Assembly (NCBI GenBank): GCA_963810095.1
Contig: CAWEMM010000007.1
Span: 594,559-658,558, forward strand
From: an uncultured Chloroflexia bacterium
GTDB taxonomy: Bacteria; Chloroflexota; Anaerolineae; CG2-30-64-16
Direction: 5' to 3'
DNA: 64,000 nt
The notes beneath the pieces were generated by a model that saw nothing but the letters and a program-made list of their open reading frames with translations, had not been told where the DNA came from and made no database searches. Position 1 is the stretch's first letter. Each line of letters starts with the position of its first letter. This document shows positions 7,381 through 62,135 of this stretch, one piece after another. The position numbers and the translations under genes were made by a program.

Positions 7381-7685
7381 GGTTCCGCTCCTTCAGACAA
7401 TTTCTTCCGACTGCCGGCGAGCCTCCGGCGATCCTGCATTCCGGTCGGACCTCTCGACGCGCCCGAACTTGATGACAAACCGTAGACTCCGCGGCCTGCC
7501 CGCCCTCGTCATTGGAGAGAGTTGCATCGGCCACATTCGCCCGCACGACTCCGCCGCCGGCCCTCCGGTGCACCGTGCGTGCCCCGCGTGGGACCGGCTG
7601 CATCCCGTGCCAGGAGGCGCAATGCGCGGCCTCCTGGCCGGAATCCATCTGGCCGGCAAAACTCACGGTTTCGCCGGCCAGAACA

Positions 7686-9302: not shown

Positions 9303-9356
9303 GTCGGTTCTCCTTCCCGGATGTGTGGGTGGGTGATTACCGGACGGGCCGGTGGA

Positions 9357-27036: not shown

Positions 27037-27319
27037 GCTGCCTTCATCCAAGCAAACAGTATCGTATTCCTTGTCAGCCGGCCCACCGCACGGGGCCATA
27101 AGTTACATTGTATGGCGATCGTGCAGCGATTGATAGACCCTAAAAAGGGGCTAATAGGGAGCAAGGAATGAGCCCCGGCCCGCCACACCGTCCATGTGAG
27201 ACAGGCCCATCCTCAGCGTTGTTCTTCGTGCGCCTTGCCCTGCCGCCCGAGAAGCGTGATATAATGGCGTTCTGTTGCGAGTCCAGCCTCCGCGCACTCA
27301 CTGGAGCAGCCCGATCGCC

Positions 27320-35810: not shown

Positions 35811-35934
35811 CCACCCAGCCGGCGCCGGCAGTGGTCCGCCGGCGCCGGCTCAGAACCCTGTGACGTTTCGCGAGGCCGGCCCTACGCCGGCCGGCCTCGA
35901 CGTTGCACCTGCGGCCCTCGTCGGAGGCACTCGC

Positions 35935-37494
35935 ATGGCGGAGATTTTGCGGCTGGAAGGGATCACCAAGACCTTCCCGGGCGTGCTCGCAAACGATTGC
36001 ATCGACCTGGAGATCGAGCGCGGGGAAGTCCATGCCCTGCTGGGCGAAAACGGCTCTGGCAAGACGACCCTGATGAACTGCGTCTACGGCGTCTACCGTC
36101 CCACCAGTGGCCGCATCTTCTGGCAAGGTCAGGAGGTCCGCATCCGCCAGGCGCGCGACGCCATCGCGCTGGGTATCGGCATGGTGCACCAGCACTTCAT
36201 GCTGATCCCTCCGCTGACGGTGGCCGAAAACGTCATTCTCGGCCTGCCACAGCCACGCGAGCCCTTCCTCGACTTCGCGCGGGGCCGAGCGGAAAGTGCG
36301 CGAGAGCAGCGAGAAGTTCCACCTGGACGTCGATCCTAAGGCGCCGGTTTGGGAGCTGCCCGTGGGCGCGCAGCAGCGGGTCGAGATCCTGAAGGCCCTC
36401 TACCGCAATGCCGAGCTGCTGATCCTGGACGAGCCGACGGCTGTGCTGACCCCCGACGAAGCCAACGAGCTCTTCCGAACCATCAAGGCGCTGAGCGAGC
36501 ACGGCCTCTCAGTGATCCTGATCACCCACAAGCTCGAAGAGGTCACTTCGCGTTTGCGACCGGGTGACTGTGCTGCGCGACGGCCGCAAGATCCGCACCG
36601 TGCCCGTCGGCCAGACGAGCCGCGCCGAGCTGGCGCGCATGATGGTGGGCCGCGAGGTGCTGTTGACCGTCGACAAGCCGCCGGCGGCCCCTGGCGACGT
36701 GATGCTTTCGGTGGAGAACCTCTCGGCCGTAGACAGCCGCGGGCTGGCGGCCTTGAAGAACGTCTCGCTCGACGTGCGCGAGCACGAGATCCTCGGGCAT
36801 CGCAGGCGTCGACGGGAACGGTCAGACCGAGCTGGTCGACGTGCATCATGGGCATGCGGCGCGGCAACGTCCGGCCGGGTGTGCGTGGGCGGGCGAGGAC
36901 ATCACCCACTGCACGCCGCGCGCAGATTCTGCAGCGGAAGGTGGCTTGCGTTCCGCCCGACCGGCAGCACATGGGCCTGTTTCTCGATTTCACGGTCGCC
37001 GAAAACCTGATCAGCCGCTCGCTTTGGGAAGCGCTCTTCGCCCGCTGGGGCTTCCTGCGCGGCACGATCGATCGCCGGCGCCGCCGAACGGCTCATCGAG
37101 AACTACTCCATCCGCACGCCGAGCCGTGACTTGCAGGTCAAACTGCTCTCGGGCGGCAACCAGCAGAAAGTCCTCCTGGCACGCGAGATGTTCAGCGAGC
37201 CGAAGCTGCTGATCGCCGCCCAGCCGACCCGCGGGCTGGACATCGGCGCGATCGAGTACGTCCATCGCCGGATCATCGAGGCGCGCGCCCATGCGGCGGT
37301 CCTGCTGATCTCCACGGAGCTGTCCGAGGTGCTCAGCCTGTCGGACCGGATCGCCGTCATGTACGGTGGCGAGATCATGGGCATCGTGCCGGCCAAGGGC
37401 GCCGATGTCAGCCAAATCGGCGAAATGATGGCCGGCGTGCTCCGCTTGGCGACGCAGCCGGCCGGGCCGCGGCGGAGTGGGCAGGACGCGATGA
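35935..37494 (+). CDS. Nucleoside/sugar ABC transporter ATPase, two NBDs (multiple frameshifts; end approximate)
   Basis: LLGENGSGKTT, GIGMVHQHF, LDEPT, LSGGNQQK, QPTRGLD. Confidence 0.88.
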
Positions 37495-40904: not shown

Positions 40905-42384
40905 TTAGCCGATTTGCTCGATCTCGCCTGGCCGCCAGGTCTGGTCGAACCACGGCTCGAGAGGGCTGTAAAGCCGCAGGTAGGTCCACCAGCCCTTTCC
41001 CGGAATGGTCTGGATCCAGTTGCCTTCTTTGCCTACGGGCGGCTCCGGGCCGAAATACACATCCACCGATGTGTCTGGATTAACCAGGAGATCCTTCTTC
41101 TGACTGCTGACGCTCGGAAAACGCTGGTCGGTCTGGAGCAGCGCGCGCGTCTGGCTGTCGTACACGACCAGCGACCAGAAATTCTTCACCGGAACATTCG
41201 GCGGCAGTCGCAGCCGGTAGGTCTTACCACCATCGAGATAGTGGCCCGCGGCGTCGTGCTCCGTGAACGCGTACTGAGAGCCGGCGCCCACCATCTTTAT
41301 CGAGATGGCCGGGCTGATGCCCCAGGCGAGGAAGAAGAAACGCGTGCGTGAGTCTAGGTCCAGCACCCCGCTCGGCATGAAGCTGCAATCGTTGCCTGTC
41401 CAACTCATCTTCCACTGGCTGTCGGGGTAGTACAGGACACCCGGGTCGCGCGGGCTGAAGGCGAGGGTGCGGCCCGTGGCGGCCCCGACGGCCGCGGCAT
41501 CGGCGAGGATGCGCCGCATCCGCTCGTCCGGGGCGAACGGCTTGTCCTTGCGAATACCGATGGCGGCGAATACCCCGACGGTTTCCGCGTCGATCATATC
41601 GAGCGGCTCTTCTTGGACAACGGTTGCCACATGCTCAAAGAGCGAGACGTCGGTCGCGGGGACGGTGCTGAACGCGACGCCAGAGATATCCACGAACGTC
41701 ATCGGGGGCGGGTCCGCCGCCCGATCGAGCGGATAGACCCGATAGTGTTGCTTGGTGTTCTCGACCGCCGGTCGCGGGTCACCATCCGGGATAAAGCCAC
41801 GAATGAAGAGCGCGCTTCCGTAGGTGCGGGAGGTCAGGACGAAGTAGCCGTCGGGCACGGGGCCCTGGTAGCCCGGGGGAAGGAGCAGGTACTTTCCGCC
41901 CGCGCCCCGGTCGAGGCCGACTGTGCCCAGGTCCGCGACGTAGCGACCCCAGAAGTCGTTGATCATACCGAGCACGCGCTGGCGGTATCTCGATGACCAG
42001 TGGGCCTTCTTTGGTGTCGAGCCAGGCGATCGTGTAGACCGTCTCCGTGTTCGCCGCCCCGAAGAGCAGAGAGCGCGAGTCTACCAGCGATTCGCTGATC
42101 ACCGCCGTCTGGTTGTCGGGGCCAAAGCTCCGCAGGCCGGTGCGCGTCGCGTGGAATACGGCCAGCGGCATGGCGGTGAGAAAGGTCTGCACGGCGCGCT
42201 GAAAGTCGAGGTTGTCGTAGACTTTCTGCACGGTGGTCTCGTCGGGCAAGCCGTCGAAGAAGCGCAGCTTGCCGAGACGGGTCTCGACGGCGTCCGGCAT
42301 GGCGACGCCGGGCGGGATGTCGGTCGTCATCTTGTAGTGGGTGGGAGCCGTGGCCACAGGTTCGCGTTCGATTGTGAGTTCCAT
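40905..42384 (-). CDS. DUF1254/DUF1214 protein (frameshift ~41985)
   Basis: YDNLDFQRA, ANTETVY, GGKYLLLPPGY, GSQY, FWSLVVYD, LRLYSP. Confidence 0.88.
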
Positions 42385-42837
42385 GGGATACCTCCTTTTT
42401 CCCTTGGAGAACTGGCGACGAACGGTTGGCCGCCCGTGCGTCGAGACGGCGTCAGGGAAGGTGACCGATGGCGCCGGAACGACGCAGGCGGCGAAATGGC
42501 GGGAAAACGGCGGGCGTGTAGCGGCAAGGTCTGGCAATAGCACCGGCTCTTTGCCAGCAGGCTACTTTCCACGAAAGTATACAACCTAACTTCGGTTCTC
42601 GCGCGCACGAGTTTTGTGGATTCTTTCACGCTTGCGCCGCACGATCCCCGCAGTTGCGGCCGCGCCGCGGCGTTACGTCCGGTGCGGCGAGGATCACCCG
42701 GTTGACGGCGTCCGGTGCTTTCAAAGGCACAACGTGCCCAGCCCTCGGGACGCTTTGTCCGGTCAGACGACGTCAAGTGTAGCGGAAGTTATAGTGTCCA
42801 TCGTACGTTTGAGCTACTTTGCCTGGGGAGCATGAGA

Positions 42838-45212: not shown

Positions 45213-45301
45213 GCTGGCATCGACCGGCCGGCGCGGGCAAGGGTGATGGCCGCAGCCAGTCCATTTGGGCCCGCGCCGACGATCACCGCGTCGTAGCTCA
45301 C
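45213..45301 (-). pseudogene. 5' fragment of a phytoene-dehydrogenase-like FAD oxidoreductase
   Basis: VSYDAVIVGAGPNGLAAAITLARAG overlaps the upstream stop codon, then similarity ends. Confidence 0.7.
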
Positions 45302-46080
45302 TTCCGCAACACCTGCCTGGCCAACTGTCCGGGCAGATGCAGCATCGTGCGGATGGCGGCGTTGTGCCAGATGTTCCGTGCCTGCCCCCACTGCATCTTC
45401 GGGTCCACCAGCTCCCTGCGCTGAGTAACCACCGGCTCGTGAACGTTAAAGTGGCCGGCGAGGTTGGCCAGGGTGCCATGCCAGAAAGCGTCCTCGTTCG
45501 GATGCCCGAGCCCCAGCCGGAACATTAGCTCGAAGATCGGGTCGCTAGTCCGGATTAACGCCTGCACCTGCGCCATCACGCCCTCGTCTTCATCCGCCGC
45601 GCTGAATGTGATCATGCCGGCGAACATGTGGCCTTGAGGCGTCATGAACGAGAATGACTCGTCGTCCGCGTAGATGACCATGATCCCGGTGGAGATCAAC
45701 GGGCCGCCGCCCGGTGCAGACCTGCCGCCCGGCCCAGCCAAATTCAGCACCGCCACCTGCCCCGGTGCGATCCCTGATGCTTCGCCGTAGAAATTATTGC
45801 CTGCCGGCCAAAACTTCGAAAAGTTGTCCTTCCAGGCCCGGATCACCTGCTCCGGCGAGATGTCCGCGCCGTCCAGACGCACGCGATATGTCTTCTGCCA
45901 CATCTGGCCGAAGCCCAACAGCGGCCCGGCCAGGTGGCGTCCTTCGACGTTCAGGTTCAGGGCCCCGATTGGCATGGTGGGCGCCTTGAGCGCGTCCACG
46001 GAGGGCGCCCAGTTCGCCGTGTCACGGCGGGAAGTCTGGCTCGTCGGCTGGTCAGCCCCTTGGGCGGTTGGCTCGATCAT
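45298..46080 (-). CDS. Conserved hypothetical protein coupled to the STAS genes
   Basis: 260 aa intact ORF; GFGQMWQKTY, FMTPQGHMFAG; starts 3 bp after the STAS stop. Confidence 0.8.
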   Translation of the reverse strand: MIEPTAQGADQPTSQTSRRDTANWAPSVDALKAPTMPIGALNLNVEGRHLAGPLLGFGQMWQKTYRVRLDGADISPEQVIRAWKDNFSKFWPAGNNFYGEASGIAPGQVAVLNLAGPGGRSAPGGGPLISTGIMVIYADDESFSFMTPQGHMFAGMITFSAADEDEGVMAQVQALIRTSDPIFELMFRLGLGHPNEDAFWHGTLANLAGHFNVHEPVVTQRRELVDPKMQWGQARNIWHNAAIRTMLHLPGQLARQVLRK

Positions 46081-46083
46081 AGG

Positions 46084-46485
46084 TTACTCCTTGTGCTGGT
46101 GGCGACCGCCATCGGCCGGCGCCACGCTGCGGTTCTCCGCCTCGGCAAGCGCGCCGGTCTCGTCTCCACAAATACGAATCGCCTTGTCGAGCTGGGTCAG
46201 TTCGAAGATCTGCTTGTAGTGCTCGCTCAATCCGAAGGCGACCAGCCCTTGCTTCTGGCGCTGGGTGCGAATCAACAGCGTCACAAGGAGACCGATGCCT
46301 GAGCTGTTCATGTACTCCAGACCGCTGAAGTTCAGGATGATCGCGTGAGCGCCGGCCGCGGTGGCCCGCGTGTAGGCGTCCATCAGGACGCTTTCGGCCG
46401 GACCGGTGACCTCTCCCCGGATATCCAGGATGCTGATTCCAGGGTTGATCGTTCGAATCGTAATCTCGAGTTTTGCGGGAGCCAT
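46084..46485 (-). CDS. STAS anti-sigma factor antagonist
   Basis: ILNFSGLEYMNSSGIGLL, IFELTQL. Confidence 0.92.
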   Translation of the reverse strand: MAPAKLEITIRTINPGISILDIRGEVTGPAESVLMDAYTRATAAGAHAIILNFSGLEYMNSSGIGLLVTLLIRTQRQKQGLVAFGLSEHYKQIFELTQLDKAIRICGDETGALAEAENRSVAPADGGRHQHKE

Positions 46486-46516
46486 GGTGTCTCCTGTGCT
46501 GGCGTCCGCCAGCGAG

Positions 46517-46867
46517 CTATCTGCTACCAGCGAGCGCGGTCGCCTCATCTTGGAAGACCGTCATGAAGTCGGCCAGCCGGGTAATTTGGAAGATCTCCTG
46601 GTAGTGCGGGCTGAGCCCGTAGACCAGCAGCCGGCGTTTGGCCTTGCGCGCACGGGCCAACAGGCCGACGATCAGCGCAATGCCGGTGCTGTTGATGTAG
46701 TTGACCTCGCCAAAGTTCAACACGATGGTCGAGGGGTTGCGGCTTTCCGCCTCGGTATAGGCGGTGCTCAAGGCTGCCTCCGCCGCCGCGTTGATATCTC
46801 CACGCAAATCAATCATGGCCGCGTCCGGTTGGAACCGGGTCGTGGCCTCAAATCGTATGGCTGGCAT
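46517..46867 (-). CDS. STAS anti-sigma factor antagonist
   Basis: VLNFGEVNYINSTGIALI, IFQITRL. Confidence 0.92.
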   Translation of the reverse strand: MPAIRFEATTRFQPDAAMIDLRGDINAAAEAALSTAYTEAESRNPSTIVLNFGEVNYINSTGIALIVGLLARARKAKRRLLVYGLSPHYQEIFQITRLADFMTVFQDEATALAGSR

Positions 46868-48500
46868 CGCGATCTCCTTTCGCTCCCAGGTTGACTATCA
46901 GGTCGACGGAGTGATGGATGCCGTCGTCGGTCACGCGTACATCGTCCACCATGCTGCGGATGAGGAAGAGGCCCCAGCCGCGCGGCGATTGCAGGCCCGC
47001 CAGCTTCGCGTCCAGATCGGGCGTGTCGATCTCGGGAATGGCCTTACCACCCCCATGGTCGGTGATGCTGGTGATCAACTCGTCGCCGGCGGTCTGCACG
47101 CGGATGGCGACCGGCAGGTTGGGATCGTAGTGATTGCCGTGCTCCATGGCGTTCATCGTCGCCTCGGCCACCGCGGTTTTGAGCCGCTCCAGTCGGTCGG
47201 CGGGCAGGTCCAGCCCCATCACTGCCGCTGCGACCTGTTCCATCGCCTCGCGCTCATTGTCGGGCGCGCTGGGGACGGCGAAGTCGGCCAGGACGACTGT
47301 AGGGCCTCTTGTCGACAGCCTCGGGCGTTTCGAATCATCCAGCGAATCGCCGAGTGGCCCGAGCACCGGTCCGGTCCGCTCCAACGTCACGAAGGTGACG
47401 TCGTCTTCCTGCTCCCAGCCTGGCCCCACAAAGTCGGCCAGGGCGCTGCGCAGGTGCTCGATCACTTCCGCGCCGTTGCCCAGTCCACAAGCCATGCCCC
47501 GCAGGCGTGGGAAGCCGAACATCTCGCCCTGCGGATCGTGTGCCTCAACCAGGCCGTCCGAGTAGATCAGGATGCTCTCACCGATCCCCAACAGCGCCTC
47601 GTGCTCGTCATAAATCATCCCGGGCATCAGGCCCAGCGGCATGCCCGTGGCACGCAACTCGACGACGGCATCCCGGGTGCACCTGGCGGGCAGATTGTGC
47701 CCGGCGTTGGCGAAGACGAAGCACCCGGTATGCGGGTTGAGCACCCCATACAGGCAGGTCACGAACATGCCGGGCGGGATGTCGGGGCAGAGCAGTTCGT
47801 TGACGTGCGCCAACACCTTGCCGGGCGACGCGGGATCCTGTTCGGCCGCCACACGTAAGATGCCGCGCGCCGTCGCCATGACCAACGCTGCCGGCATGCC
47901 CTTGCCGGTCACGTCGGCCTCCACGATGCCCAGGTTGCCGTCGGGCAGGTTGATGAAGTCATAGAAATCGCCGCTGACGGCCTGGGCCGGCTGCCAGTAC
48001 GCGGCCAGGTTCCAGCCTGGCAACTGTGGCAGTTCCTGCGGCAGCAAGGTCTGCTGGACAACGCGAGCGACCCGCAGCTCCTGTTCCAGCCGCTCACGGG
48101 CCTGCGTCTCGATGTGCTGCTGGCGGACGAGTTGCGCCACGCGCACGGCCGGCGCGGCCTGGGCCGCCAGGTCGCCTAGCAGCCGGCGGTCGTCGGCCGA
48201 GTAGTCCTGTTCGCTGCGCCGCGGGCCCAGGTTCAGCAGACCGATCAATTCGCCCTGGCCGGCCAGCGGCGCGACAGTTTAACCCCCGCTTCGCGCAGTG
48301 AACGCAGCGCCGGCGAATCCAGCTTCAGTCGCTCCAGGTCTACCACTCCGCCCGCGCTTAGCAGATACGCGCTCAGCGGGTCATTCGGCGCGAAGTCCAG
48401 CGGCAGGATCTGGGCCGCGACGGGAGCCGGCCACTGCCTGGGTCTGCATAGGCACGGTCACGATTGAATCCCCGCTGGGTCTGCGAAATGGGTTATGCAT
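46848..48500 (-). CDS. Partial GAF + SpoIIE/RsbU PP2C phosphatase + RsbW-like kinase fusion (frameshifts ~48420, ~48275)
   Basis: NDPLSAYLL..DSPAL..PL..QGELIGLLNLGPR (GAF C-half); EQEL.VAR..Q.LLP, SGDFYD, DVTGKG, NAGH, YSDGL, EDDVT; EATMNAMEHGN, DHGGG, RGWGLFLI. Confidence 0.88.
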
Positions 48501-48619: not shown

Positions 48620-50154
48620 TCAGTAGCGTGTATCTTTCTTGAGCCACACACTCACGCTCTCCGGCGCCACCGTCTCCTGCACCACGCGCGCCAGCTCCGC
48701 CGTCAGGCGTTCCAGGTCGGTCTCGTCGCGGGCGGTGAGAGCGAACCGGGCCAGCACCTGCTGGGCATCGTACTTCTTGCGGAAGAAGCGCCGGTCGATG
48801 AAATCCTGGATGCGGCGGCGCAGCGGCGTGAACAAGACTACGATGGCCAGTGTCGAGACGGCTACCGCCAGCGGCGACTGCTCGACTCCGGTCAATGCGG
48901 CGACCAGCCGCTGCAGCAGCACCACCCCGCCCAAGTAGACCAGGGCCAAGAGCGCGGTCAGCGCGCCATACACCAGCGTCTTGCGGATGATGAGGTCGAT
49001 GTCGTACAACCGATAGCGCAGGATAGCAATAGCAATGGCCATGGGGAAGGTCAGGATCGAGACGACAAACAGCAGATCCAGCCAGCCGCTTGCTGAGCCC
49101 CATTGGCCAGCAGTCGAGAGAAAGTAGTTCAGGGCGTAACTGACGGCGAACACAGCCGCGGCATAGAGCAGCCACTTGATCTGTTGGCGTTCGCCGACCG
49201 AGGCGCGACGATAACGCAAGAACAGAGATGCGAGGCTGGCGAACACCAACGTTATCAGCCCGATGCCCCAGACAATCAGGATCGGACCCAGCCACACTCG
49301 ATCCGGAATGAAACCAATCGGATTCGGAAGCCTCCAGTTGGCATTGAGGGGGCCCATTGTGTCCAGGAAGGAGCCAAAACCGATGAAGAACAACCACATG
49401 CCCAAGGCAAGCCAGTTCACCCAGTGCCAGCGGGTAGAAGGCGGGCGACCGCCAGGAAAATGGAGCGGGATCAGGAAGATGGGAAAGATAACCGGTATCC
49501 ACGACCAGCCATCGAACCAGAGAAGCAGCCAGAGGCCGGTCGTGAGCGCACTCGGGGTAGCGGGCAGTCGTCCCAGGATTGTCACGACAGGATTGACGGT
49601 CGCCGAGCGCGATGACATCATAGCCAGCCGACCCGGTTGGAGGGCTGGCGCACGATGATCAGGGCGGCCAACGAAGAGAACACCACGGGAATCATTAGTC
49701 CCCACCCCAGTGCTTCGACCCAGTCGAAGAGCGAGATGGGGGATTGCTGTTTGGCAACCAAAACGCCAATTGAGCCAGGGCGCCCAGCGTGCAGAGCCGG
49801 TAGGCCTTGGAAAAGGCGTGCCAGACGGGTATGGTTCTGCCATTCCCAAACCGACCATCATCGCCGAAACAATCAGCGCACCGCATCGTTTTTTCGCAAG
49901 AAGATCACCAGCCCAATGGCACCCCAGGCGAGCGTGTTTGGCCACTGCAACAAGTAGTTGAACATCGCGTAGAGGTTGACGCTCACGCCCATTGCTTCCA
50001 AACCCTGAACCGTGCCTGCTGGCGGAACAATGCCTTGCATCTGGCGAAATGCTGCTATCTGGCTAACGACCCAAAGACCGGTAAGTGCCGTGGCAAACAC
50101 GACCCACGCTACCTGGGCGTAGGTGAGGCGGCGGCCCGATAGTCCCTCGCTCAT
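48620..50154 (-). CDS. Multipass membrane sensor-like protein 1 ending in a GAF N-terminal fragment (frameshifted)
   Basis: [68 protein letters not shown] then stop. Confidence 0.85.
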
Positions 50155-50182
50155 ACTTTCCGTTGCTCCCTGTGTGCCTTTC

Positions 50183-50238
50183 ACCATACCAACAGCCCGT
50201 ACCCTAATCGTTACGGACACCCGGGGGGATGCCGTCAC
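50183..50238 (-). promoter_or_regulatory. Motif-class promoter 2 (-10 TATGGT)
   Basis: accata(50183-88), 20 bp, cgttacg(50209), cgtcac(50233). Confidence 0.7.
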
Positions 50239-51703
50239 TATCGCGTCTCCACTACTCGCTCCTCTCCCACTCGGCCGGCGCCGCGGCCAAGCGCGCGCCA
50301 CTCGTGCGCCATCGGCGTGACGCCCAGGTCCGCCACGAGGCGGCGGGCGGCCAGTCCCAGGATCGCCGTGAACGTTGGATACGCGATCTGCAGCTCGGCG
50401 AGTTGCTCGACCCACATGTCGGCCGCGATAGCAGCGGCAGCCACGTGCACGACCTCGAGCGCCTGCTCGCCGACCACGTGCGCGGCCACCAGCCGGTGCG
50501 TCTCCCGGTCGGCGATCAGCTTGCAGAAGCCCTCGGTGCGGCCGTCGATTACTGCTCGGTCCAAGTCTGCGTAGGGCACGACCGCGACGGCGATGTCGCG
50601 CTCTTTGCGCGCCTGCTCCTCCGCCGGCCCGACGCTGGCGTACTCTGGGTGCGTGAACCCGCCGTGCGGCACGATCTGGTGCTCCTTGCGCCCGTTACCG
50701 CCCAGCAGTGCGTTCTCGGCCGCGATGCGCGCCTCGTAGCCGGCGCTCTGCACCAGCATCATGCGCCCATCGATGTCGCCGGCCGCATAGATGTGCGGCA
50801 CCGAGGTGCGACAGGTGGCTGTCGGTGATGACGTAGCGGCCATCCGTCTCGACGCCGGCCGCAGCGAGGTTCAGCCCGTCCAGGTTGCCCAACCAGCCGG
50901 TAGACATAATCACCGCTTCGACAAGTAACGTCTGAATATGCGTCGCCCAACTGGTAGGCCAGCGCCAGCTCATTCCCCTGTCGCTCGAGGCGCGTCACGC
51001 CGCCGATGCCGGTGATGATGTCGACGCCCACGGCGCCCATACGCCTCGGTCATGCGTTTCCGAAACGAGCCGGTCCTCGATGGTCAGGATGCGCGGGGCC
51101 ACGTCCAGTACGGTCACCCGGCTGCCGAACGCGCTGAAGATCGTGGCCAGTTGGCAGCCAGTGGCTGCGCCACCCACGATCGCGACCGAACGCGGCAACG
51201 CCTGCAGGCGCCAGATGTCACTGTGGGTCAGCGCCAACTCCGCGCCGGGGAAATCGAGCCGGCGCGCCGCGGCCGCCCGCGGCCAGGACGAACTTCTCGC
51301 CTACGAACTGCCGGCCATCGGGCACAGCAACGGTGTGCGGGTCCAGAAACCGCGCCACGCCCACCCCGACATGGACCTCGACGCCCGAGGCCTCCAGGTG
51401 CGCCAGATGTTGCTTCTTCTCGTGCATCTCGTAGATGATGGCCTGGGTGCGCGCCAGCAAGCGCCGAAAGTCGAGCTCCGGTCGTGCGAGGGTCAATGCC
51501 ATAGGCCTCATATTGGCCGGCGTTATCCATCAGGCGTGCAGCCCGACGCCAGCGACCCGCGTCGGCACGCAGCCGTCATTGGTGCACGTGCCGCCCAGGC
51601 TGTCGTCGCGCTCGATGAGCGCCACTGACGCGCCCAGCTCGCGGCCGCGCAGCGCAGCGGTCACGCCAGCCGGTCCCCCACCGATCACGATCAGGTCGTA
51701 CAT
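50238..51703 (-). CDS. Flavoprotein disulfide reductase (lipoamide DH/MerA/SthA class I; multiple frameshifts)
   Basis: YDLIVIGGGPAG, GGTCTNDGCVP, IVGGAATG, IYAAGD, FTHPE.ASVG, AYPT. Confidence 0.88.
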
Positions 51704-51708
51704 GTGGG

Positions 51709-53065
51709 TTACACTGCCTCCAGTGCGCTGGCCGTCTCGACCCGCCCGACTTCGCCGTCCACCGCGACGTGGTAGGTCCGTAAGCGCGCTTGGCAGGGCC
51801 AAGCAGCACCTCGCCGGTGGTCACGTCAAAGCAAGACGCATGCCAGGGACAGACGATGATCGTTTCGTCGAGCTTGCCCTGGCTCAGCGGCCCGCCGGTG
51901 TGGGTGCACTCATCCTGCGTCGCGTAGAACTGCCCTGCGACGTTATAGACCGCCACGTTCATGCCGTCCACTGTCACCCGCGTAACCTGTCCCGGCTGCA
52001 GGTCGGCAACCCGAAAATGATTGGATCCGCCGGCAGCCGGTTGACCGGACGGTTCCGAACATACCATGCAAGCGAGATATCCGGCTCATCGCGTTTGTAG
52101 ACCGGGATCCGTACGGTCACGCGGCCATCGCGCACAGTCACCGGGTACTTGGGCAGGACTGCGGTCCGGTCCAGCAGCAGCTGCCCGGTGGCGAGGGCGT
52201 ACTGATACCCGTGCCACGGGCAGGTCAGCGTGCCATTGGTCAGATCACCCGCGCACACCGGTCCGCCGCGGTGCAGGCAGCTGTTCTGCAGCGCGACCCA
52301 TTCCCCGTCCTGATGGAAGACGCCGACAGATAAGCCCTCGGCATCGATGATCTTGCGCTGCCCTTCGGGGATCTCGTCGACCGTCCCGACCAGCACCTCG
52401 CGATACTCGATCGTGCGCGCGATGCCAAGCGCCTTCTCATAGGTCTCCACAGCCAGATCGCGCACCGGCTCCTCGTCCATCTCCTCGCGCGCCTGAAAGG
52501 TTTCCGGCTCGCGGCCCTCGCCATACGGCCTCGCCAGTTGCTCGAGCAGGACCATGAGCAGGGCCTGCCACGCGGTCCGGGCCCGTGCCTCCAGGTCAGG
52601 GTCTATTTCCCGCAGCTCCGCCGCCAGGGCTTCCGTCACCCGCTGTCCCACGAACCCCACCATGCCAAGCACGTAGCGCTCGGGAATATAGACCGTGGGA
52701 TCGGCGCCCAGCGAGGTGTGCGCTCGGCCGACGTAGTCCACAAAGCGCGCGTAGTCCTCGTCGAAGACGCCGGCCGCAGTGCGGCGCCAGAAGCCGGCCT
52801 GGTGCTGCATGCGCAGCGCCAGGTAGGCCTGGTCAAGCGTTCCGTCCGGTTTCAGGAAGTGTTTGCGCGTGGCCGGGAAACTCAGCACCTGGGCGTAGAA
52901 CTCGCCGACGATCGCGGGGATGTGCTTCTCGATCACGAAGCGCGTCTCCCGGATAGCTTCCGCATGCTCAGCGCTGAACCCGACAAAGTCGGACATGAAA
53001 GCAAAATAGCGGCCCGCGTCGGGCGCGCCGCGCTTGAATCGTTCTTGCGTTGACAACTCACTCAT
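51709..53065 (-). CDS. Protoglobin-domain protein fused to two Rieske [2Fe-2S] domains (frameshifts ~52065, ~51785)
   Basis: FMSDFVGF, IVGEFY, YVGRAH, IPERY (protoglobin/sensor-globin pattern); CLH..CPWHG and CTH..CPWHA Rieske ligand sets. Confidence 0.8.
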
Positions 53066-53132
53066 TATTCCAGAACCCTCATCCATCGGCTCGCGCAGTA
53101 CAAAGCGTTACTTCACACTCTATTCGTTTGTC

Positions 53133-53178
53133 ATCCTACCAGTCCACCGTCCGCCAATCGTTACGGATGCGAGTGACG
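53133..53178 (-). promoter_or_regulatory. Motif-class promoter 3 (-10 TAGGAT)
   Basis: atccta(53133-38), 20 bp, cgttacg(53159). Confidence 0.7.
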
Positions 53179-53179
53179 T

Positions 53180-54303
53180 CTATATCGCAGCCACGCGCTC
53201 ACTGTCTCCCGCTGCTGCGTCTACCTGCCACGACGCGCTGCACTCCAAGTCGTCGCAGGCCGTCAGCGACCGCTGAACCAGAGACACGAAGAAGCCGGTC
53301 CAGCGCTCGTCAAAGCTGCCACGAAAACACTCAGTCGCGACGTAGACACACATCGCCACGCACAACCTGTAGTCATAGAGCAGTTGCTCCCAGGTGTATC
53401 CACAGCACGCCACATCTCTCCAGGCAGGCGAGGTAGTGTTCGAGAATGGGCATCCCCCATTCCCTGTGCGCCTCGATCTCCCAGTCCAGCACGAGGGCAT
53501 GGGCCAGGTCATAGACGCCCAGCCACGTGGTCATTGCCCAGTCAAAGGGTTGGCGGTCAATCACGTAGATGGGGCGATCGCCCAGGCGCGGCACGAGTAT
53601 GTTCTTTGCGCCGGGATCGCCATGAATGAGCGTGAATCCGTTCGGGTTCATCGTCCGTTCCACCATAGCCCGCGAATGGTTCGCGAACAGCTCGCGCAGG
53701 GAGTCCGGCCAGTGTGGCTTCAGCTCGGATGAGAATCGCCCTAGGAGGTGATCCACCCCCGCTTCGGCCACTGTGACGAAGTCCCGGATTTGACTGGCGC
53801 TGTGCATGGGCGCCCCTGCTTCCATGAGCCGCTGTCCGCCCCACCAACGGGCATGTAGAACGGCGAAGCCCTCTGCGAGCGCGAACCCATAGTCAAGCGT
53901 CGGCGCTTTTTCGGACGCGGTGACATGTGTCTCCGACACGTCGTCCAGGAGGAGGTGGTATCGCCCGAGCACGTCCGAGTACTGCGCGTCGTAGCAATGC
54001 AGCAGCGGGGCGCCTTCCACATCCACGTAATCCCGCCGGTAGTACGTGACTTCCGAGTCGTCGAACGACTCGTCACCAGGGTGGGTATTGACCATCTTCA
54101 AGAACAGGCATCGCGGCAGCGACCCTTGCGCCCCATCCGTGTAATTCACGAGCCAGCCTGGCGTTGGTGGACCAGTTCCCCTGCCCTGACTCCAGCTCGA
54201 AGGACGCGACCGCACCGTGCGTCAATGCGCCGCGGGCCGCGAGGACCGAGGTCAACCACCCGGTTGTCACCTGCTCAATGTTGGTGATCACGTTATCTGC
54301 CAT
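53180..54303 (-). CDS. APH/EcKinase-like phosphotransferase (frameshifts ~54165, ~53405)
   Basis: LFLK, E..YY, LLLDD, HARWW, TLIHGD...N, YDLA. Confidence 0.82.
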
Positions 54304-55438
54304 GCGGGCTTTTCGTTTCTCGCAGCCACACACTCACGCCCTCCGGTTGCAGCGTCGCCTGCACGACGCCCGTCAACTCCGCCGTCAGCGCGTCCAGGTC
54401 GGTTTCATCGCGTGCCGTTAGGGCAAACTGAGCCAGAACCTGTTGCGCGTCGTATTCTTCCGGTAGAAGCGACGGTCGATGAAATCCTGGGTGCGCCGGC
54501 GCAGCGGCGTGAACAAGACACGATGGCCAGCGTCGAGACGGCCACCGCCAACGGAGACTGCTCGACGCCTGTGAGCGCCCCGACCAGCCGCTGGAGCGAG
54601 CACGACGCCCCCGAAGTAGACCAGCGCCAGCAGCACCGTGAGAATCGAATAGACCAAGGTGCGGCGGATGATGACGTCGATGTCCCACAGGCGATAACGC
54701 ATGATCGAGATCACGATGGATCCTGGGAATACGATGAGGAAGGCGGTCCACAGAAAGAAACCCAGTTGCTCGCTAGCTGTACTCGCGCTAAAGAAATTCG
54801 TTCCCGCAAACAAGACGAGAGCGATCCCTAATGGCGGTAAGATCACGGCAAGCCCGAAGACGACCCACTTGATCTGCTGGCGCTGGATCGCATCAGAGAC
54901 ACGGAGGTAACGGTAGATTTGGGCAAGCGCTGCTGTGATCATCAACAGCCCCATCATGGGGAAGGCCTTCTGCATGTACGCGTCCGGGAAGAAAATCCGC
55001 CAAAGCTGAATTCCAGACACAACAAGGGCAGCCACGCGCGTCCAGCGCGGCACGAAGCGCCCGTCCGGAAAGATATAGAACAGGCAGATCAGAAGCGTGC
55101 TCGAGAGTGCGGCAAACACGAGATCAAGGCGCACGGCGAATGGCTCGCTCCCAAAGACCAACTCGAACTTGTCGGTTGAGAGGGATACGATGAGCACAAG
55201 CGAAAAGATAAAGGCGACCAGGTCGTCGGAACGCCGCCAGAAGATAAGAATGCCGAGGACCAGGTAGACCGCCTGAAGCACGATCTCAAGCCAGACTTTT
55301 GGGTCTTGCGACGCGCTTCCCACGGTCTGGGGCAAGGCAAGCAAGTCGAGGATCACAAATACGACGGCGATGACCGTCCACAACGCGCGCATCAGTACCA
55401 GTTGCCGGCCGGTCAGGCGGCTGCTGTTCGCGTGTCAT
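54293..55438 (-). CDS. Multipass membrane sensor-like protein 2 ending in a GAF N-terminal fragment (frameshifted)
   Basis: [59 protein letters not shown]. Confidence 0.82.
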
Positions 55439-56763
55439 GACTTCTGCTCCCGACCGCGCAGCCACACGCTCACGCCTTCCGGCTGCAGCGTCTCGTCCAC
55501 CACCCGCACAAGTTCGCTGGTAAGAGCGTCCAGGTCGGTCTCATCGCGGGCCGTTGACGGCGAACCGGGCCAGCACCTGCTGGGCGTCGTACTTCCTCCG
55601 GTAGAACCGCCGGTCAACAAGCTTCTGGATGCGGCGGCGCAGCGGCGTGAACAAGACGCACGATGGCCAGCGTCGAGACCGCCACCGCCAGCGGCGACTG
55701 CTCGACGCCGGTGAGCGCGGCGACCAGCCGTTGAAGCAGCACGACGCCCCCGAAGTACACCAAAGCCAGGAGCGAAGTCACAACGCTATAGACCAGCGTC
55801 TTGCGGATGATGACATCGATGTCGAAGAGCTTTGAGCGGAGGATTGCCACGCCGATGGACAGGAAAACAACCTGAAACGCCATGGCCGACACGATCAGAA
55901 AGGCAGAACGCCGAAGTAAGTCTCGATCGCTCTGCGTGCCCAGAGTGGCGTCACCGGTGATGCCGATGTAGGCAAAGGTTGTCAAGAGGAATGCTGGTAT
56001 GGCGCCGAGACCGAACAGCACCCACCGCGTTTGCTGGCGCTCTGCCGGGCTGGACACGCGCCGGTAGCGATAGATTTGCGGCCGCCACGCCGCCGAACAT
56101 CACGCTCAAGCCAACCAGTCCATGTCCAGAAGGATCCCAGCGGGTTGCTGCTGCTGCCTCAAGTCCAGCGTCGACTGCAGGAAGTAGCCGATGCCGAAGT
56201 AGGCGACGACGATCCAGTACAGCCGGGGCACCATACGTCCGTTTGGAAAAAGGCCGAAGAACAACGGCAAAGAGACAGTGGAGAGCAGGTCGAGGATCTT
56301 TGCGGGGACCTGAAACGCGGGATATGCCGCTGCCAGTACGCTCACCCCTTCTCCAAGCGTGACCCATGTGATGAAGAAGAATGAGATCAGCAGGGCGATT
56401 GGTTCGCTGCGCCTGCGTGCGAAGATCAGGAACCCGAGCGTGAGGGGAACCAGGGCAAAAACGCCGCGAAGACTGACCCGCAGGAGCGCATACGCGTCCA
56501 AGGAGAGGCCGCGGGCGGCAAGTTGTGCGACCCCGGTGGGCGTGGCAAAGTCGAACTGGGCGCATTGCTCGGCCGTCGCCGTGCATACCTGCCGCAACTG
56601 GCCGTAGTACATAACTGATCCGGCCACGTACATCGAGCAGCGCGGGCACGACGACATCAACCCAGGCGACTTGCGCGAGGTGCATCCAGCGCAACGTCCG
56701 CAAATGGGATTTTGGCGACTCGGTCCCCTGCGATTGGATCGCTTGCGACCCACGGTCTCTCAT
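55435..56763 (-). CDS. Multipass membrane sensor-like protein 3 ending in a GAF N-terminal fragment (frameshifted)
   Basis: VC....QC loop, [51 protein letters not shown]. Confidence 0.82.
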
Positions 56764-57411: not shown

Positions 57412-57481
57412 GGGCGGCAATTCGTTGCGTTTCCTTGTATCCGGCGGTACAATTTCGTCGGTCAGGCAGGGAGGGAAGCAC

Positions 57482-60432
57482 ATGGCCCTACTCACGATCC
57501 GGCTCTTGGGCGTTCCCCGTATCGTACGCGACGGTGCGCCGGTCGTCGTTGACACGCGTAAGGCGATCGCCCTTTGGCCTACCTCGCACTTACCGGCCGC
57601 GTCCACGCCCGCGAGGCGTTGGCTGCGCTACTCTGGCCCGAATACGACGACGAGCACGCGCGGGCGGCTCTGCGCCGGACGCTGTCCACGCTCCGTGCAG
57701 CGCTAAGCGAGCCCTATCTGGCTGTCGAACGCGAATCGATAGGCCTGATCTCCGGGGCAGGCGTCTGGGTAGATGTGGCGGCGTTCAACGAGCGGCTGGC
57801 CGCCTGCCGGACCCATGGCCATCCCGCGGCCGATGTCTGCCCCTTATGCCTATCGCCCCTGGCAGAAGCGGCGGAGCTCTACGAAGATGACTTCATGGCC
57901 GGCTTCACCTTGCGCGATAGTGTCAACTTCGACGATTGGCAGCTCGTCTCAGGTCGAGAGCCTGCGCAGTGCCTTGGCTGAGGTATTGGAGAAGCTCGCG
58001 TGCGGCTATGGCGCCCAGGGTGACTTTGCCGCCGCGTTGGCATCGGCCCGGCGGTGGTTAGCAATGGACCCCTTGCGCGAGGAGGCGCACCGCCAGGTGA
58101 TGCGACTTTACGCGTGGTCCGGCCAGCGCAACGCCGCCATCCACCAGTACCGTGAGTGCGTCGGCATCCTGGAGCAGGAGCTGGGCGTGACGCCGCTGGC
58201 GGAGACCACCGAGCTGTACGAGGCGATCAAGGGCAACACGCTGCCTGAACAGGTAGACCTAAGAAGTCGCCCCAAGCCCGTAGGCTCTCCAGCGTCATCT
58301 GCCGTGGATCTGCCAGGACTCGCAGAAGGGTCCGCCCGTTCGCTCCCTCTGGTCGGCCGGGCCGCCGACCTGGCGGGCCTGATCCATTCATACGAACAGC
58401 ACGGGGCCGGCGGCTACTTCGTGGCGATAGAGGGTGAGGCCGGCATCGGCAAGACGCGGCTCGCCGAGGAGTTCCTGGCCCATGCGCGCGCCGAGGGCGC
58501 GACGACGATCACCGTGCGCTGCTTCGAGGGGGAAGCGGCGGTGGCGTACGGGCCGATCGCCGATGGATTACGCGCGGCCTTACGTGAACGTCGTGTGCGG
58601 AACGAACAGCAGCCATCCCGGCCCATTGGCTGAGCGAAGCCGCTCGCCTGCTGCCCGAGTTGCTCGCCTCCCATCCCGAACTCCCGTCGCCCCTGCCAGT
58701 CGACGCCCTGGGCGGACAAAGCCGCTTCTTCGAGGCGTTGCGCCAGGTGCTGATGAGCTTCTGTCGCGGACCGGTGCCCAACGTGCTCTTCTTCGATGAC
58801 ATCCACTGGGCGGACTCGGCCTCGCTCGACCTGCTGGCCTACCTGGTGCGGCGGCTACACGGTCAGCCGCTCTTTCTGCTCGCGACCTGGCAGGGCGAGG
58901 ATCCGACTCATCGCCAGCGATTGGCCCACCTGGTCGTCGACGCCCAGCGCGGTCATACCGGCATGGCCATGCGCCTGGCTCGGCTCAAGCCGGCCGATGT
59001 GCTCGATCTACTCCGCGCGGCCGGAGACGCGGTCACATCGCTGCCCGTCAGAGATCGGCAGCCGGCTGTATCACGAGACGGAGGGACTGCCGTTGTTCCT
59101 GGTCGCCTACCTCGAAGCACTGGCGCAGGGCAATAGAGCAGGCGAGGGCGGGGCGGAGTGGCCGGTGCCACCTGGGGTAATTGACCTCTTGCGGGCTCGG
59201 CTGGATACAGTGGGGGACGCCGCACGGCAGGCCCTGCAGGCAGCGTCTGTGATAGGTCGTTCCTTCGACCTGGAGGCGCTGCACAGCGATCAGCGGTCGT
59301 AGCGACGAGGAGATCGTGTTGGCACTGGAAGCCCTGACCAGCCACGGGATCTTGCGGGAGATTGCGGAAGGCACGGGCGCGGCTCCATCGTATAACTTCA
59401 CCCACGAGAAGCTGCAAGGCCTGGTCTACGATGAGACGGGCCTGGCCCGGCGCCGGCTGCTGCACGGCCGCGCGGCTAGGTTCTTATCGGAGCGAGCCCG
59501 ACTCCGCCGAGATCTGGCAGCCCACGCGGCGCAGATCGGCCGTCACTTCCGGCTGGCTGGACAGGATGCCGACGCAGCATCCCATTTCGCCCTGGCTGGC
59601 GACCACGCCCGCAGCCTCTATGCCAACGCCGAGGCGTTGGCGCAGTTCCAGGCCGCGTTAGCCTTGGGCCATCCCGAGACTTGCCGCTTGCACGAGGCTA
59701 TCGGCGACATGCACACGCTTCTGGCAGCCTACACCGCGTCGCTGGCCAGTTACGAGGTGGCGGCGGCGTTGTGCGAGCCAGGCAGTCCAGCGCTGGCCGA
59801 GATCGAGCACAAGCTCGGGAACGTGCATGCCCGCCGCGGGGAATGGCTTTCTGCTGAGGCGCACTTCTCGGCCGCGTCGGACATACTCGGCCGCCCGGAG
59901 TTCCCCGCGGCGGTAGGTCGGATCTTGGCCGACTGGAGCCTCGGCGTCCATGCGCAGGGGCAGCCGGAGCGGGCACTCAGTCTGGCCCGGCGATGCGCTA
60001 TTCTTGACGGAGTCGGCGTCTGACCAGCCCGGTATGGCCCAGGCACACAACATCCTCGGCATCCTGGCGCGCAGCCGTGGGGACGCCGCCGGCGCTGCAG
60101 CGCACCTCGAACAGAGCCTGGCCATCGCTGAGGCACTGCCTGACCCTAGCAGTCGCGTCGCAGCGCTCAACAACCTGGCCCTCGCCCGCGCGGACAGCGG
60201 CGACCTGGTGGGGGCCACGGCCCTGGCCGAGCAAGCGTTGGCGCTGGGAGTTGCCGTGGGCGACCGGCATCGGGAGGCCGCACTGCGCAATAATCTGGCG
60301 GACCTGCTGCATGCAGCCGGCCGCCGCGAAGAGGCGATGGCTCAGCTCAAGCAGAGTGTGGTGATTTTCGCTGAGATCGGGCTGGCGGCCGGCGACACTC
60401 AGCCGGAGATCTGGAAACTGACAGAGTGGTAG
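57482..60432 (+). CDS. SARP/AfsR-like regulator: wHTH-BTAD-AAA ATPase-TPR (multiple frameshifts)
   Basis: IRLLG.P, R..LAALLWP, AALRRTL, MDPLREEAHR.VM, LGVTPL.ET, GEAGIGKTRL, DDIHWAD, TEGLPLF, TPR-like repeats, PEIWKLTEW end. Confidence 0.9.
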
Positions 60433-60465: not shown

Positions 60466-62135
60466 TCAGCTGGACTGCGCCAGATACTGGTGAACGAACT
60501 GGACGGCCATACCCCCCTCACCCACCGCGGCAGCCACTCGTTTGACCGAACCACGGCGTACGTCGCCGGCAGCGAATACGCCGGGTATGCTGGTCTCCAG
60601 CAAGAGCGGGGGCCGTTGCAGCGATGGCAGCCGATTTATGGGCCTGACGTCGATCAGATCCTGTCCCGTGAGAAGGAAGCCGCGCGGGTCGCGCAGGATG
60701 CCGGTGGGCAACCAGGCCGTGCGAGGCTGCGCGCCTATCAGGACGAACAAGGCCGCTGTTGGGATGGTCTGAGTTGTCTCTGCAGAGCCGTCCTGGATAA
60801 CCAGGCTCTCGAGCCGGTAGGTGCCGTGCCCGTCGATGATCTTGGTGTGCAGACGTACGTCAATGTTGGCCGTGGCTGCAATCTCCTTTACCAGATAGTC
60901 CGACATACTGGCGGCCAGCGAGCCACCCCTTGCCAGGATCGTGACCTGTCGCGCGTACTTCGCCAGATGGACGGCCGCCTGCCCCGCGGAGTTGCCAGCG
61001 CCGGCAACGAAGACGTGCTGTCCTTCCATTGCCTGGGCCTCGGTGATCCCACCGCCATAGAAGACCCCCGCACCCACCAGCCCTTCGAGGCTGGGAATCC
61101 CGAGGCGCTGGTAGCTGGCGCCCATCGCCAAGATGATCGTCCGGCTGACGATTTCCGTCCCATTCGCGAACACGAGGACACGGTCGCGGCCTTCCGCTCG
61201 CAGATCGATGGCCTCGCGCAGCACCGACGTTTCCGCCCCAAACGACCATGCCTGGTCGAGCGCCCGGTTGGTGAGATCTGCTCCGCTGATGCCGAGCGGG
61301 AACCCCAAGTAGTTTCGAATGAGCGAGCTGGTGCCCGCTTGCCCACCGATTGAGTCCCGATCGACTACGATGGTGCGCAAGCCCTCTGACGCGCCGTAGA
61401 CTGCCGCCGAGAGGCCAGCAGGCCCGGCGCCGACAATAGCCAGGTCGAAGCGGCCTTTATCGTCGCTATGACGCACGCCCAGCGCCAGCGCCACCTCCTC
61501 ATTCGGGGCGCGGTCAGGACCAGCCCATCAAACCGGATCAGCACGGGAAATGGGCCAGCGGGCCGGCCGAACCGCTGCAGCAGCGCGAGGCCGTCCTCGG
61601 AATCGGTCTCATAGGACTTGAACGGCAGACCACCGCGGGCCAGCAGATCGCGAATCTCGGCGGCACGTGCGCTCCAACGCTCGGCCACGATGGTGACAAT
61701 CTCACGCGTTGCCTGTTGTCGACGCTGCCAGTCATGAAGCACCCCGGTAATGAGCGCATGAAACGCTTCGTCGGGAGCATGATTGGGCTTGACGACGTAG
61801 CGGTCAAATTGCCCAACCGCAACGGCTTTGAGGAGCGGCTTTGACTCGGAACGATTGCCCCAAGGGACGAGCACGACACGTGTCGCATGGGGATAGAGTT
61901 CATGTGCGCGCGCGAAGTACTCGATGCACGGCATCGAGCTCAACTCGAGCGCCGCCAGCAGGATGACGACTTGCGCACCCGCCGCCCGCAACTGCCCCAA
62001 CCGTTCCAGCGACGCCTGTGCTGTTTCATCGCAGAAAACTTCGTAATCGTCCGCGTAGCGCTTGAGCAGCTCGCGCTGGAGTATCTCCCTATCCCGAACC
62101 TGATCCTCGACCGCCATCAAAACCGGTTTAGCCAT
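60466..62135 (-). CDS. Receiver-domain / thioredoxin-reductase-like FAD oxidoreductase fusion (frameshift ~61510)
   Basis: [11 protein letters not shown] receiver; [52 protein letters not shown]. Confidence 0.88.

Follow-up and report, generated by a model that had tools for sequence, protein, structure and literature searches.

We analyze a gene that joins a globin to two iron-sulfur domains, found in a 64,000-nucleotide stretch of DNA (hereafter the window) from an uncultured Chloroflexia bacterium. The gene lies on the minus strand at 51709..53065 and comprises ~452 codons when read through three single-base insertions or deletions (indels). In its product, two complete Rieske [2Fe-2S] domains come after a protoglobin-type globin, an observation that the analysis confirms, and the gene is followed on the same strand by a gene for an NAD(P)H flavoprotein (50238..51703). 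Throughout, the protoglobin-Rieske-Rieske gene is labeled c0, the adjoining flavoprotein c9, the clusters of neighboring open reading frames (ORFs) c1 to c8, and the related loci L001 onward.

The c0 start codon (ATG, 53065..53063; MSELSTQERFKRGA...) is placed where homologues begin, and the gene ends with a TAA at 51711..51709. The ORF holding the globin opens upstream of this ATG, at 53086, and its frame closes at 51974, giving 370 amino acids (aa) in which Pfam assigns residues 31-188 to Protoglobin (PF11563; 73.8 bits against a cut-off of 25, E 2.1e-20) and residues 231-314 to Rieske (PF00355, E 1.4e-15). A second complete Rieske domain occupies the next frame piece (51786-52067; Pfam, E 9.4e-20), and the last ~29 residues (LRTYHVAVDGEVGRVETASALEAV) are read in a third frame up to the TAA. 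The breaks were mapped with tblastn against the window, using as query P0001, a 452-aa full-length homologue 94% identical to c0. Three colinear pieces in three frames were obtained, corresponding to P0001 residues 1-334 (53068-52067, 93.7% identity), 340-426 (52049-51789, 93.1%) and 424-452 (51798-51712, 86%). Two of the single-base frame changes fall in the linker between the Rieske domains (52049..52067, minus strand), where the five residues GMFGT are read in yet another frame, and the third (51789..51798, minus strand) precedes the last beta-strands (LRTYHVAVDGEVGRVE...). Five nucleotides (51708-51704) separate the c0 stop from the ATG of c9 (51703..51701), which begins MYDLIVIGGGPAGV.... 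The original prediction had proposed a globin-like N-terminal domain, with FY at a B10-like position and the proximal His in VGRAH, in frame with the first Rieske domain, and a reductase ATG 5 bp past the c0 stop. All of this is borne out: F56-Y57 and the His fall in register with the Methanosarcina acetivorans protoglobin (MaPgb), and both Pfam matches lie inside one ORF. The second Rieske domain had been placed across one probable frameshift; the frame is indeed broken there, but the indels number three in c0, with several more in the reductase.

A word-indexed protein search, in which 8000 candidates were scored with a threshold of E <= 1e-3, returned 692 proteins matching c0. The best 120 of these 692, which were examined further, measure 420-479 aa and all carry Protoglobin and Rieske Pfam labels; with that many matches sharing one three-domain architecture, the globin-Rieske-Rieske arrangement is far beyond chance. 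Where homologues have been named, they appear as 'Rieske 2Fe-2S domain-containing protein' or 'nitrite reductase/ring-hydroxylating ferredoxin subunit(/hemoglobin-like flavoprotein)', and the named ones come from Anaerolineae, Caldilineales or Caldilinea metagenome-assembled genomes. A search for related loci, limited to one genome per species, found a relative encoded in 576 of 599 matched stretches, from which 80 loci were kept. The globin part is included in 19 of them (L001-L019), all Chloroflexota, and the other 61 match the Rieske part only or, in L058, from residue 138 on. The alphaproteobacterial loci L020-L025 were considered as free tandem-Rieske proteins and dropped; in L020, L024 and L025 the matched stretch is divided between two ORFs that lie side by side. 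An exhaustive HMMER search against 1.84 billion representatives, for which the query was the globin domain by itself, yielded 342 matches at E <= 1e-3; of these, 66 reach <= 1e-10 and 25 reach <= 1e-30. Among the close matches (>= 54% identity) scanned with Pfam, the longer ones contain Protoglobin and Rieske, and the remaining ones, with Protoglobin only, are probably fragments, judging by their length. Past a gap come single-domain protoglobins, the nearest at ~25-33% identity to the c0 globin, and then classical globin-coupled sensors. c0 is a member of an uncharacterized ~450-aa family, found in these searches only in Chloroflexota.

The globin domain spans c0 residues 1-181 (52523..53065, minus strand) and is delimited by Pfam, by alignments to Protein Data Bank (PDB) chains and by an AlphaFold2 model compared with Foldseek. 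Window residues 22-117 align without gaps to residues 26-121 of MaPgb chains (phmmer against PDB, E 2.5e-5), and a profile built from the globin-only fragments gives an identical register. With helix labels taken from the titles of MaPgb PDB entries (W60 = B9, Y61 = B10, F93 = E11), F56-Y57 stand opposite W60-Y61, making Tyr57 B10, and His116 (VGRAH) stands opposite His120 (IGLRH), making it F8. The same register places Arg85 at E7, His88 at E10 and Gln89 at E11, where MaPgb has Val at E7 and Phe at E11. All 120 of the best homologues retain Tyr B10 and His F8, together with H, Q, F, W, R and R of the E-helix motif RMxHQ..FWRR; the R and M of RMxHQ are invariant in alignments of 19 to 26 rows. 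The model of residues 1-181 (predicted local distance difference test, pLDDT, 89.1; predicted TM-score, pTM, 0.85) has the 3-on-3 globin fold with pre-A helices of solved sensor globins, and its best PDB matches all belong to the sensor family: AfGcHK (target TM-score, TMt, 0.86-0.89), HemAT and GsGCS (TMt 0.81-0.84), BpeGReg, and MaPgb (query TM-score, TMq, 0.72-0.79). Given this fold match and the conservation of Tyr B10 and His F8, the domain is a globin of the sensor type and very probably a heme binder. By alignment its distal side looks unusually polar. The Tyr B10/Gln E11 pair is used by the truncated hemoglobin N of Mycobacterium tuberculosis, which dioxygenates nitric oxide (NO); for c0 this is a lead only.

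Comparison with characterized globins sets the family apart from each known design. c0 shares with MaPgb and other single-domain sensor globins the PF11563 match, the helix order including the pre-A helices and the Tyr B10 and His F8 register, but its globin is about 20% identical to MaPgb and carries two Rieske domains, whereas MaPgb is single-domain. Protoglobins in the strict sense are single domains of ~195 aa, and c0, at about 450 aa with two more domains, is not one of them. The globin-coupled sensors AfGcHK, HemAT, GsGCS and BpeGReg are the best structural matches and likewise place an N-terminal globin before other domains. In sensors of this class the outputs are MCP, kinase, GGDEF/EAL, cyclase or STAS domains, whereas the C-terminal domains of c0 are of electron-carrier type; Pfam finds only Rieske after the globin and no signaling output domain in c0. 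With flavohemoglobin (Hmp), whose established function is NO dioxygenation, c0 would share the idea of a globin with its own NAD(P)H electron supply. Hmp nevertheless has an F-family globin, as opposed to the S-family globin of c0, and an FNR-like FAD/NAD module, for which c0 shows no Pfam match (FAD_binding_6 or NAD_binding_1); electrons in c0 would instead cross two [2Fe-2S] centers, supplied by a separate flavoprotein of unrelated enzyme type.

Rieske domain 1 (52145..52396, minus strand, by Pfam) and Rieske domain 2 (51789..52013, minus strand, by Pfam, phmmer and Foldseek) both retain the CxH...CxxH pattern, and each of the eight ligands is kept in 119 to 120 of the 120 best homologues, from which we infer that both domains bind clusters. 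The loops read CLHRGGPVC...CPWHG in Rieske 1 and CTHTGGPLS...CPWHAS in Rieske 2. In motif and in fold, both come close to the low-potential ferredoxins that serve ring-hydroxylating dioxygenases (CarAc, NDO, BphA3/BphF and TDO; phmmer E 7e-17 to 4e-13 against CarAc, NDO, BphA3 and TDO). For Rieske 2, the CarAc, NDO and BphA3 ferredoxins are the closest solved relatives (E 7e-17 to 1e-14), and Foldseek comparison with stand-alone ferredoxin chains gives TMt 0.8-0.89 and rmsd 1.0-3.3 A. Among the matched PDB entries, 2yvj is a dioxygenase-type Rieske ferredoxin bound to its own flavoprotein reductase. Unlike these ferredoxins, c0 has two such domains in tandem, fused to a globin, and among the neighbors scanned in the window and related loci no oxygenase alpha subunit or Reductase_C-type ferredoxin reductase was found. 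High-potential Rieske proteins of the bc1/b6f type carry the loop disulfide motif CxHxGC ... CxCH; neither c0 domain contains it, and matches to the QcrA and PetC models fall far below their cut-offs. NirD, a name present in some source annotations, was rejected at 36.8-38.9 bits against a TIGR02378 cut-off of 74.65. As a separate observation, Rieske 1 has an extra Cys in GGPVC (window 52260-52285, alignment position C272), beside the first cluster-binding loop, which is kept in 119 of the 120 best homologues; at the same position, PLS is found in Rieske 2 and in the dioxygenase ferredoxins.

The adjoining flavoprotein c9 contains Pyr_redox_2 and Pyr_redox_dim domains and a GGTCTNDGC redox-disulfide motif, and its reading frame in the window changes several times. 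Full-length orthologues in L002, L014 and L007 have the same two Pfam domains. Across 26 aligned relatives the GGTCTNDGC cysteines (C44 and C49, CxxxxC) are invariant, and the C-terminal tail contains a conserved EWE. In class-I disulfide reductases the C-terminal His-Glu catalytic dyad reads HPT...E; all 26 relatives have YPTFTA, with Tyr in place of that His, and none has a MerA-type C-terminal Cys pair. Thus c9 resembles Lpd, MerA, RclA and GR in its two domains, its CxxxxC and its NAD(P)-binding GxGxxG, and differs from them in the YPT motif, in lacking the MerA Cys pair and in its own tail. Its orthologues also score below every NCBIfam equivalog cut-off (Lpd, MerA, GR, RclA, SthA), the best being Lpd (TIGR01350, 331.3 against 408.8 bits) and MerA (324 against 454 bits). 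As judged from its domains and motifs, c9 is a flavoprotein of the class-I disulfide-reductase type; it belongs neither with FNR modules nor with ferredoxin reductases of the Reductase_C type.

Linkage between c0 and c9 extends beyond the window. The two matches run into each other in L014, where that of c0 extends to 9320 and that of c9 begins at 9313; in L002 c9 starts 126 nt past the end of the c0 match, and in L007 it lies 3.7 kb upstream of c0. A Caldilineales record holds both proteins (MEZ4766888.1 for c0, MEZ4766890.1 for c9) on the same 543-kb contig with accession numbers two apart, and five pairs of c0 and c9 matches whose longest contigs are of equal size, one of just 4885 bp, were also counted for linkage. 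The window and L014 share the order c0-c9-...-c2-STAS-STAS-c3-c4 (see below for the neighbors) with c0 proteins that are about 50% identical, and in a 16-row c0 tree, which omits the truncated or broken L012, L016, L018 and L019, the L014 protein lies across the midpoint root from that of the window.

We put forward, tentatively and as a possibility somewhat short of even, that c0 is a self-contained redox hemoprotein in which electrons are relayed from a flavoprotein through the two Rieske centers to heme for the turnover of O2 or NO. NAD(P)H reducing equivalents would enter via a separate flavoprotein, which in the window would be c9, and would then pass from Rieske 2 to Rieske 1 and on to the heme. 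The relay would keep the heme ferrous, and the ferrous heme could turn over O2 and/or NO in NO-dioxygenase-like or reductive O2/NOx chemistry. Because c0 sits in a conserved stress-signaling neighborhood (see below), its physiological role is probably in the response to O2, NO or redox stress. We favor such a relay because all heme and cluster ligands are conserved, the Rieske domains are of the dioxygenase-ferredoxin type and c0 has no signaling output domain. The linkage of c0 and c9 argues in the same direction, through the 5-nt junction in the window, the overlap in L014 and a gene order shared across the root of the c0 tree. A variant of the family lends weight to a globin placed last along the route of the electrons: P0130 (579 aa) combines Fer4_19, two CDGSH domains, Protoglobin and Rieske in a single chain, and in L015 the same Fer4_19 and two-CDGSH module (7166-7927) overlaps the start of c0 (7911-9323). 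Such added iron-sulfur (Fe-S) domains fit an electron wire.

Several points weigh against the relay. Given its type, c9 may act not on a Rieske center but on a disulfide, on a metal ion or on a small oxidant, and it lies within 8 kb of c0 in only three of the 19 loci (L014, L002, L007). To our knowledge, the characterized globins of the sensor family are sensors. The most frequent neighbors of c0 are signaling and membrane proteins, not detoxification genes, and the full-length c0 model (pLDDT 83.9, pTM 0.50) is confident within domains and not between them. No fused globin-Rieske-reductase was seen among proteins of 649-2000 aa, which is weak evidence. The biological role of protoglobins is itself still called unknown in the available text of one account (PMC3680402). 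The chain from NAD(P)H through FAD and [2Fe-2S] to heme that the original prediction had put forward is accordingly upheld in part: the ligands are kept, the start of c9 abuts or overlaps the end of c0 and an Fe-S variant exists, but the class of c9, its sparse linkage and the commoner signaling neighbors weigh against it or limit it.

The neighborhood in which c0 is embedded bears directly on its function. On the minus strand of the window the order is c8, c1, c1, kinase, c0, c9, c1, c2, STAS, STAS, c3 and c4 remnant. Directly upstream of c0 lies a frameshifted gene for an EcKL/APH-like small-molecule kinase with an HGD..N motif (53228..54303, minus strand), which accompanies c0 and c9 in all three loci of the clade, namely the window, L002 (9421-10563) and L007 (5664-6728), and is 59% identical between the window and L002. 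Three copies of c1, a multi-pass membrane protein with a conserved C-terminal cytoplasmic tail, are present, one at 48620..49945 and two frameshifted at 54296..55392 and 55459..56507 (all minus strand). Downstream of c9 and the first c1 copy comes c2 (46869..48430, minus strand), a partner-switching enzyme that fuses GAF, PP2C (SpoIIE) phosphatase and HATPase_c_2 kinase domains, followed by two STAS proteins resembling anti-sigma antagonists (46520..46867, with a conserved N-S-[ST]-G serine, and 46135..46485, both minus strand) and by c3 (45301..46062, minus strand), a conserved soluble protein of about 250 aa from no known family and without a match in PDB. The cluster then stops abruptly at a remnant of c4 (45218..45310, minus strand), comprising the first ~30 residues of a CrtI/CrtO-like FAD oxidoreductase that is complete (469-490 aa) in L003, L006, L008, L012 and L014. 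Beyond c8, on the opposite strand, lies c5, a BTAD-AAA-TPR transcriptional regulator with six frame changes (57467..60429, plus strand), so that the window carries the whole neighbor set. Just past this regulator, another flavoprotein gene (60469-61494, minus strand) encodes about 340 aa, a size like that of thioredoxin reductase, with Pyr_redox_2 only.

A scan of 49800-53500 for promoters and terminators detected no promoter-like site, and two terminator-like matches against 1.5 expected; GC content dips at 53000-53400 and at 49800-50200. At most, these results point to intergenic DNA on either side of c0-c9. Inspection by eye of the DNA upstream of c0, in the window and in 10 loci, revealed no shared motif, and PADLOC gave no defense-system match for c0, c9, c1, c2, c3 or the kinase.

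Conservation of this neighborhood was assessed by clustering the ORFs of the 19 globin-containing loci and mapping the clusters back with tblastn; the resulting counts are lower bounds, five loci being contigs of 2.4-6.8 kb. The most frequent neighbor is c1, which accompanies c0 in 10 of the 19 loci, with as many as five copies in tandem. These proteins, as seen in the window, L004, L017 and L019, have ~430 aa, 8-10 hydrophobic segments and a tail that reads RYRL[YW]DI[DE]..I.R.TL.Y ... DRRFYR.KYDA ... SLWLK, with no Pfam or NCBIfam match. The GAF-SpoIIE(PP2C)-HATPase_c_2 fusion c2 is near c0 in six loci, plus a fragment in L007, the pair of STAS genes (c7) in five, c3 in five, and c8, a small membrane protein with a DUF6789 match below cut-off, in five. 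Both c4 and c5 occur in six. L004, L006 and L014 show the same order of GAF-PP2C-kinase, STAS, STAS and c3, L008 shows it without c3, and L003 has the same partner-switching genes, with c3 doubled, in a block upstream of c0.

These neighbors raise the strongest rival to the relay, namely that c0 is a gas and/or redox sensor and not an enzyme, its state being passed by contact to the STAS/GAF-PP2C-kinase module; the heme would bind O2, NO or CO, and the Rieske clusters would report redox state or keep the sensor heme reduced. The STAS proteins have kept the serine typical of SpoIIAA, whose structures they match (E 1e-6), and a STAS protein with a phospho-serine motif, a PP2C phosphatase and an HATPase_c_2 kinase are all encoded, so that by sequence the neighbors look like a partner-switching set comparable to SpoIIAA/RsbV STAS, RsbU-type PP2C and RsbW-type kinase modules, with phosphatase and kinase fused. 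No sigma factor is found in the partner-switching cluster (45301-48430). We regard the sensor as a live rival because this cluster is commoner near c0 than c9 is: c2 and the two STAS genes are clustered with c0 in five of the 19 loci as well as in the window, and the BTAD-AAA-TPR regulator in six. The c0 globin belongs to a sensor family, and the gene order of the window is kept in L014 despite the limited c0 identity between them. There is also precedent for a heme globin that feeds a STAS/kinase cascade in the O2-sensing Vibrio stressosome, as described in the available portion of PMC4976288. Unlike the Vibrio globin, that of c0 is not fused to a STAS domain. c0 has no covalent output domain, and its two ferredoxin-type domains, with their optional Fe-S modules, resemble a wire more than they do a sensor. 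The cluster is, moreover, absent around c0 in several loci: none of the c1-c9 neighbors occurs in L001, L009 or L011, whose flanks cover the full 8 kb, in L015 (8 kb upstream, 1.4 kb downstream) or in the short L013, and in L010 c2 alone is present and lies on the opposite strand. On balance we judge the sensor reading unlikely, if worth serious consideration. A broader proposal, that the family adds to flavohemoglobins and globin-coupled sensors a third type of chimeric globin, hard-wired to Fe-S centers, whose heme and cluster state would be both catalytic and read by the STAS/PP2C-kinase cascade, strikes us as more speculative still.

The same neighborhoods admit another use for the Rieske pair, which could serve as a ferredoxin for neighboring enzymes, either c4 or the cytochrome P450 of L002, with the globin gating electron flow by binding O2 or NO. 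Its Rieske domains are of the ferredoxin type, c4 overlaps the end of c0 with its start in L003 and directly precedes c0 in L012, and L002 has c0, c9, the kinase and the P450 in a row. The P450, however, occurs in just one of the 19 loci, of c4 the window retains only a 30-residue remnant, and no ring-hydroxylating oxygenase subunit was found among the neighbors scanned. We know of no CrtI-type enzyme that uses a Rieske ferredoxin. A heme-gated carrier of this kind therefore appears improbable, and we retain the relay to heme as the preferred account.

The frame breaks of c0 are part of a wider pattern in the window. By tblastn, c9 is broken several times, c2 once, two of the c1 genes once or twice each, and c5 undergoes six frame changes in 2.95 kb. 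Codon-phase changes, tracked through GC at the third position, number 10, 4, 4, 3, 11, 7, 11 and 9 in successive 8-kb segments, so that 8-32 kb is clean and 0-8 kb and 32-64 kb are rich in breaks. Several long genes in 8-32 kb are intact by Pfam coverage, including an AbgT gene that covers profile positions 1-501 of 502; split genes elsewhere include an ABC ATPase (35650-37126) and a DUF1254/DUF1214 protein (40908-42543). One explanation is that the locus is decaying in this genome, the indels being real and c0, the reductase and their neighbors pseudogenes. The uneven spread of frame changes and the truncation of c4 to about 30 residues would suit such decay. The breaks themselves, on the other hand, are single-base in c0 and shifts of one or two bases in c5; residue numbering runs continuously across them in both genes by tblastn, with no larger deletions. 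No in-frame stop was seen within the c0 pieces, and the pieces flanking its breaks are still 93-94% identical to P0001. The very high break rate, with six changes in the 2.95 kb of c5, fits local sequencing or polishing error better than decay, which we consider improbable. As read from the sequence, the three c0 indels in the window copy are thus most likely local sequencing or polishing errors, and the conclusions at the family level are independent of whether they are real.

The sequences of the c0 family are already public under generic annotations. No description of the globin-Rieske architecture was found in the full-text literature, a body of text that leaves subscription journals largely outside, so that an earlier census may mention it. 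In the available parts of texts that contain both 'globin-coupled' and 'Rieske', the two terms co-occur incidentally. The 3-on-3 chimeric globins described in the accessible text of a 2020 review of globin diversity are flavohemoglobins, with a reductase module, and globin-coupled sensors, with signaling outputs; chimeric truncated globins are also mentioned, and the review lists sensor output domains, the terms 'iron-sulfur' and 'ferredoxin' being absent from its text (PMC7475203). A conserved sensor-type globin joined to two Rieske centers would add a new chimeric globin design, and the family would give protoglobin-like proteins, whose role is called unknown in the part of PMC3680402 cited above, a tractable biochemical handle. 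It is common in environmental Anaerolineae and Caldilineae genomes, and its function bears on how abundant, mostly uncultured Chloroflexota handle O2, NO or redox shifts; under the broader proposal above, the protein would combine enzyme and sensor for O2, NO or redox stress in these bacteria. The hypothesis is directly testable with one expression construct and the neighboring flavoprotein.

Elsewhere in the window, a sulfatase gene (25077-26567, minus strand) lies 3.6 kb from a gene for a radical-SAM/SPASM protein with a C-terminal SEC-C motif (30147-31532, minus strand), with a MalT-like LuxR regulator (27275-30049) between them; the sulfatase and the radical-SAM/SPASM protein may form a sulfatase-maturase pair.

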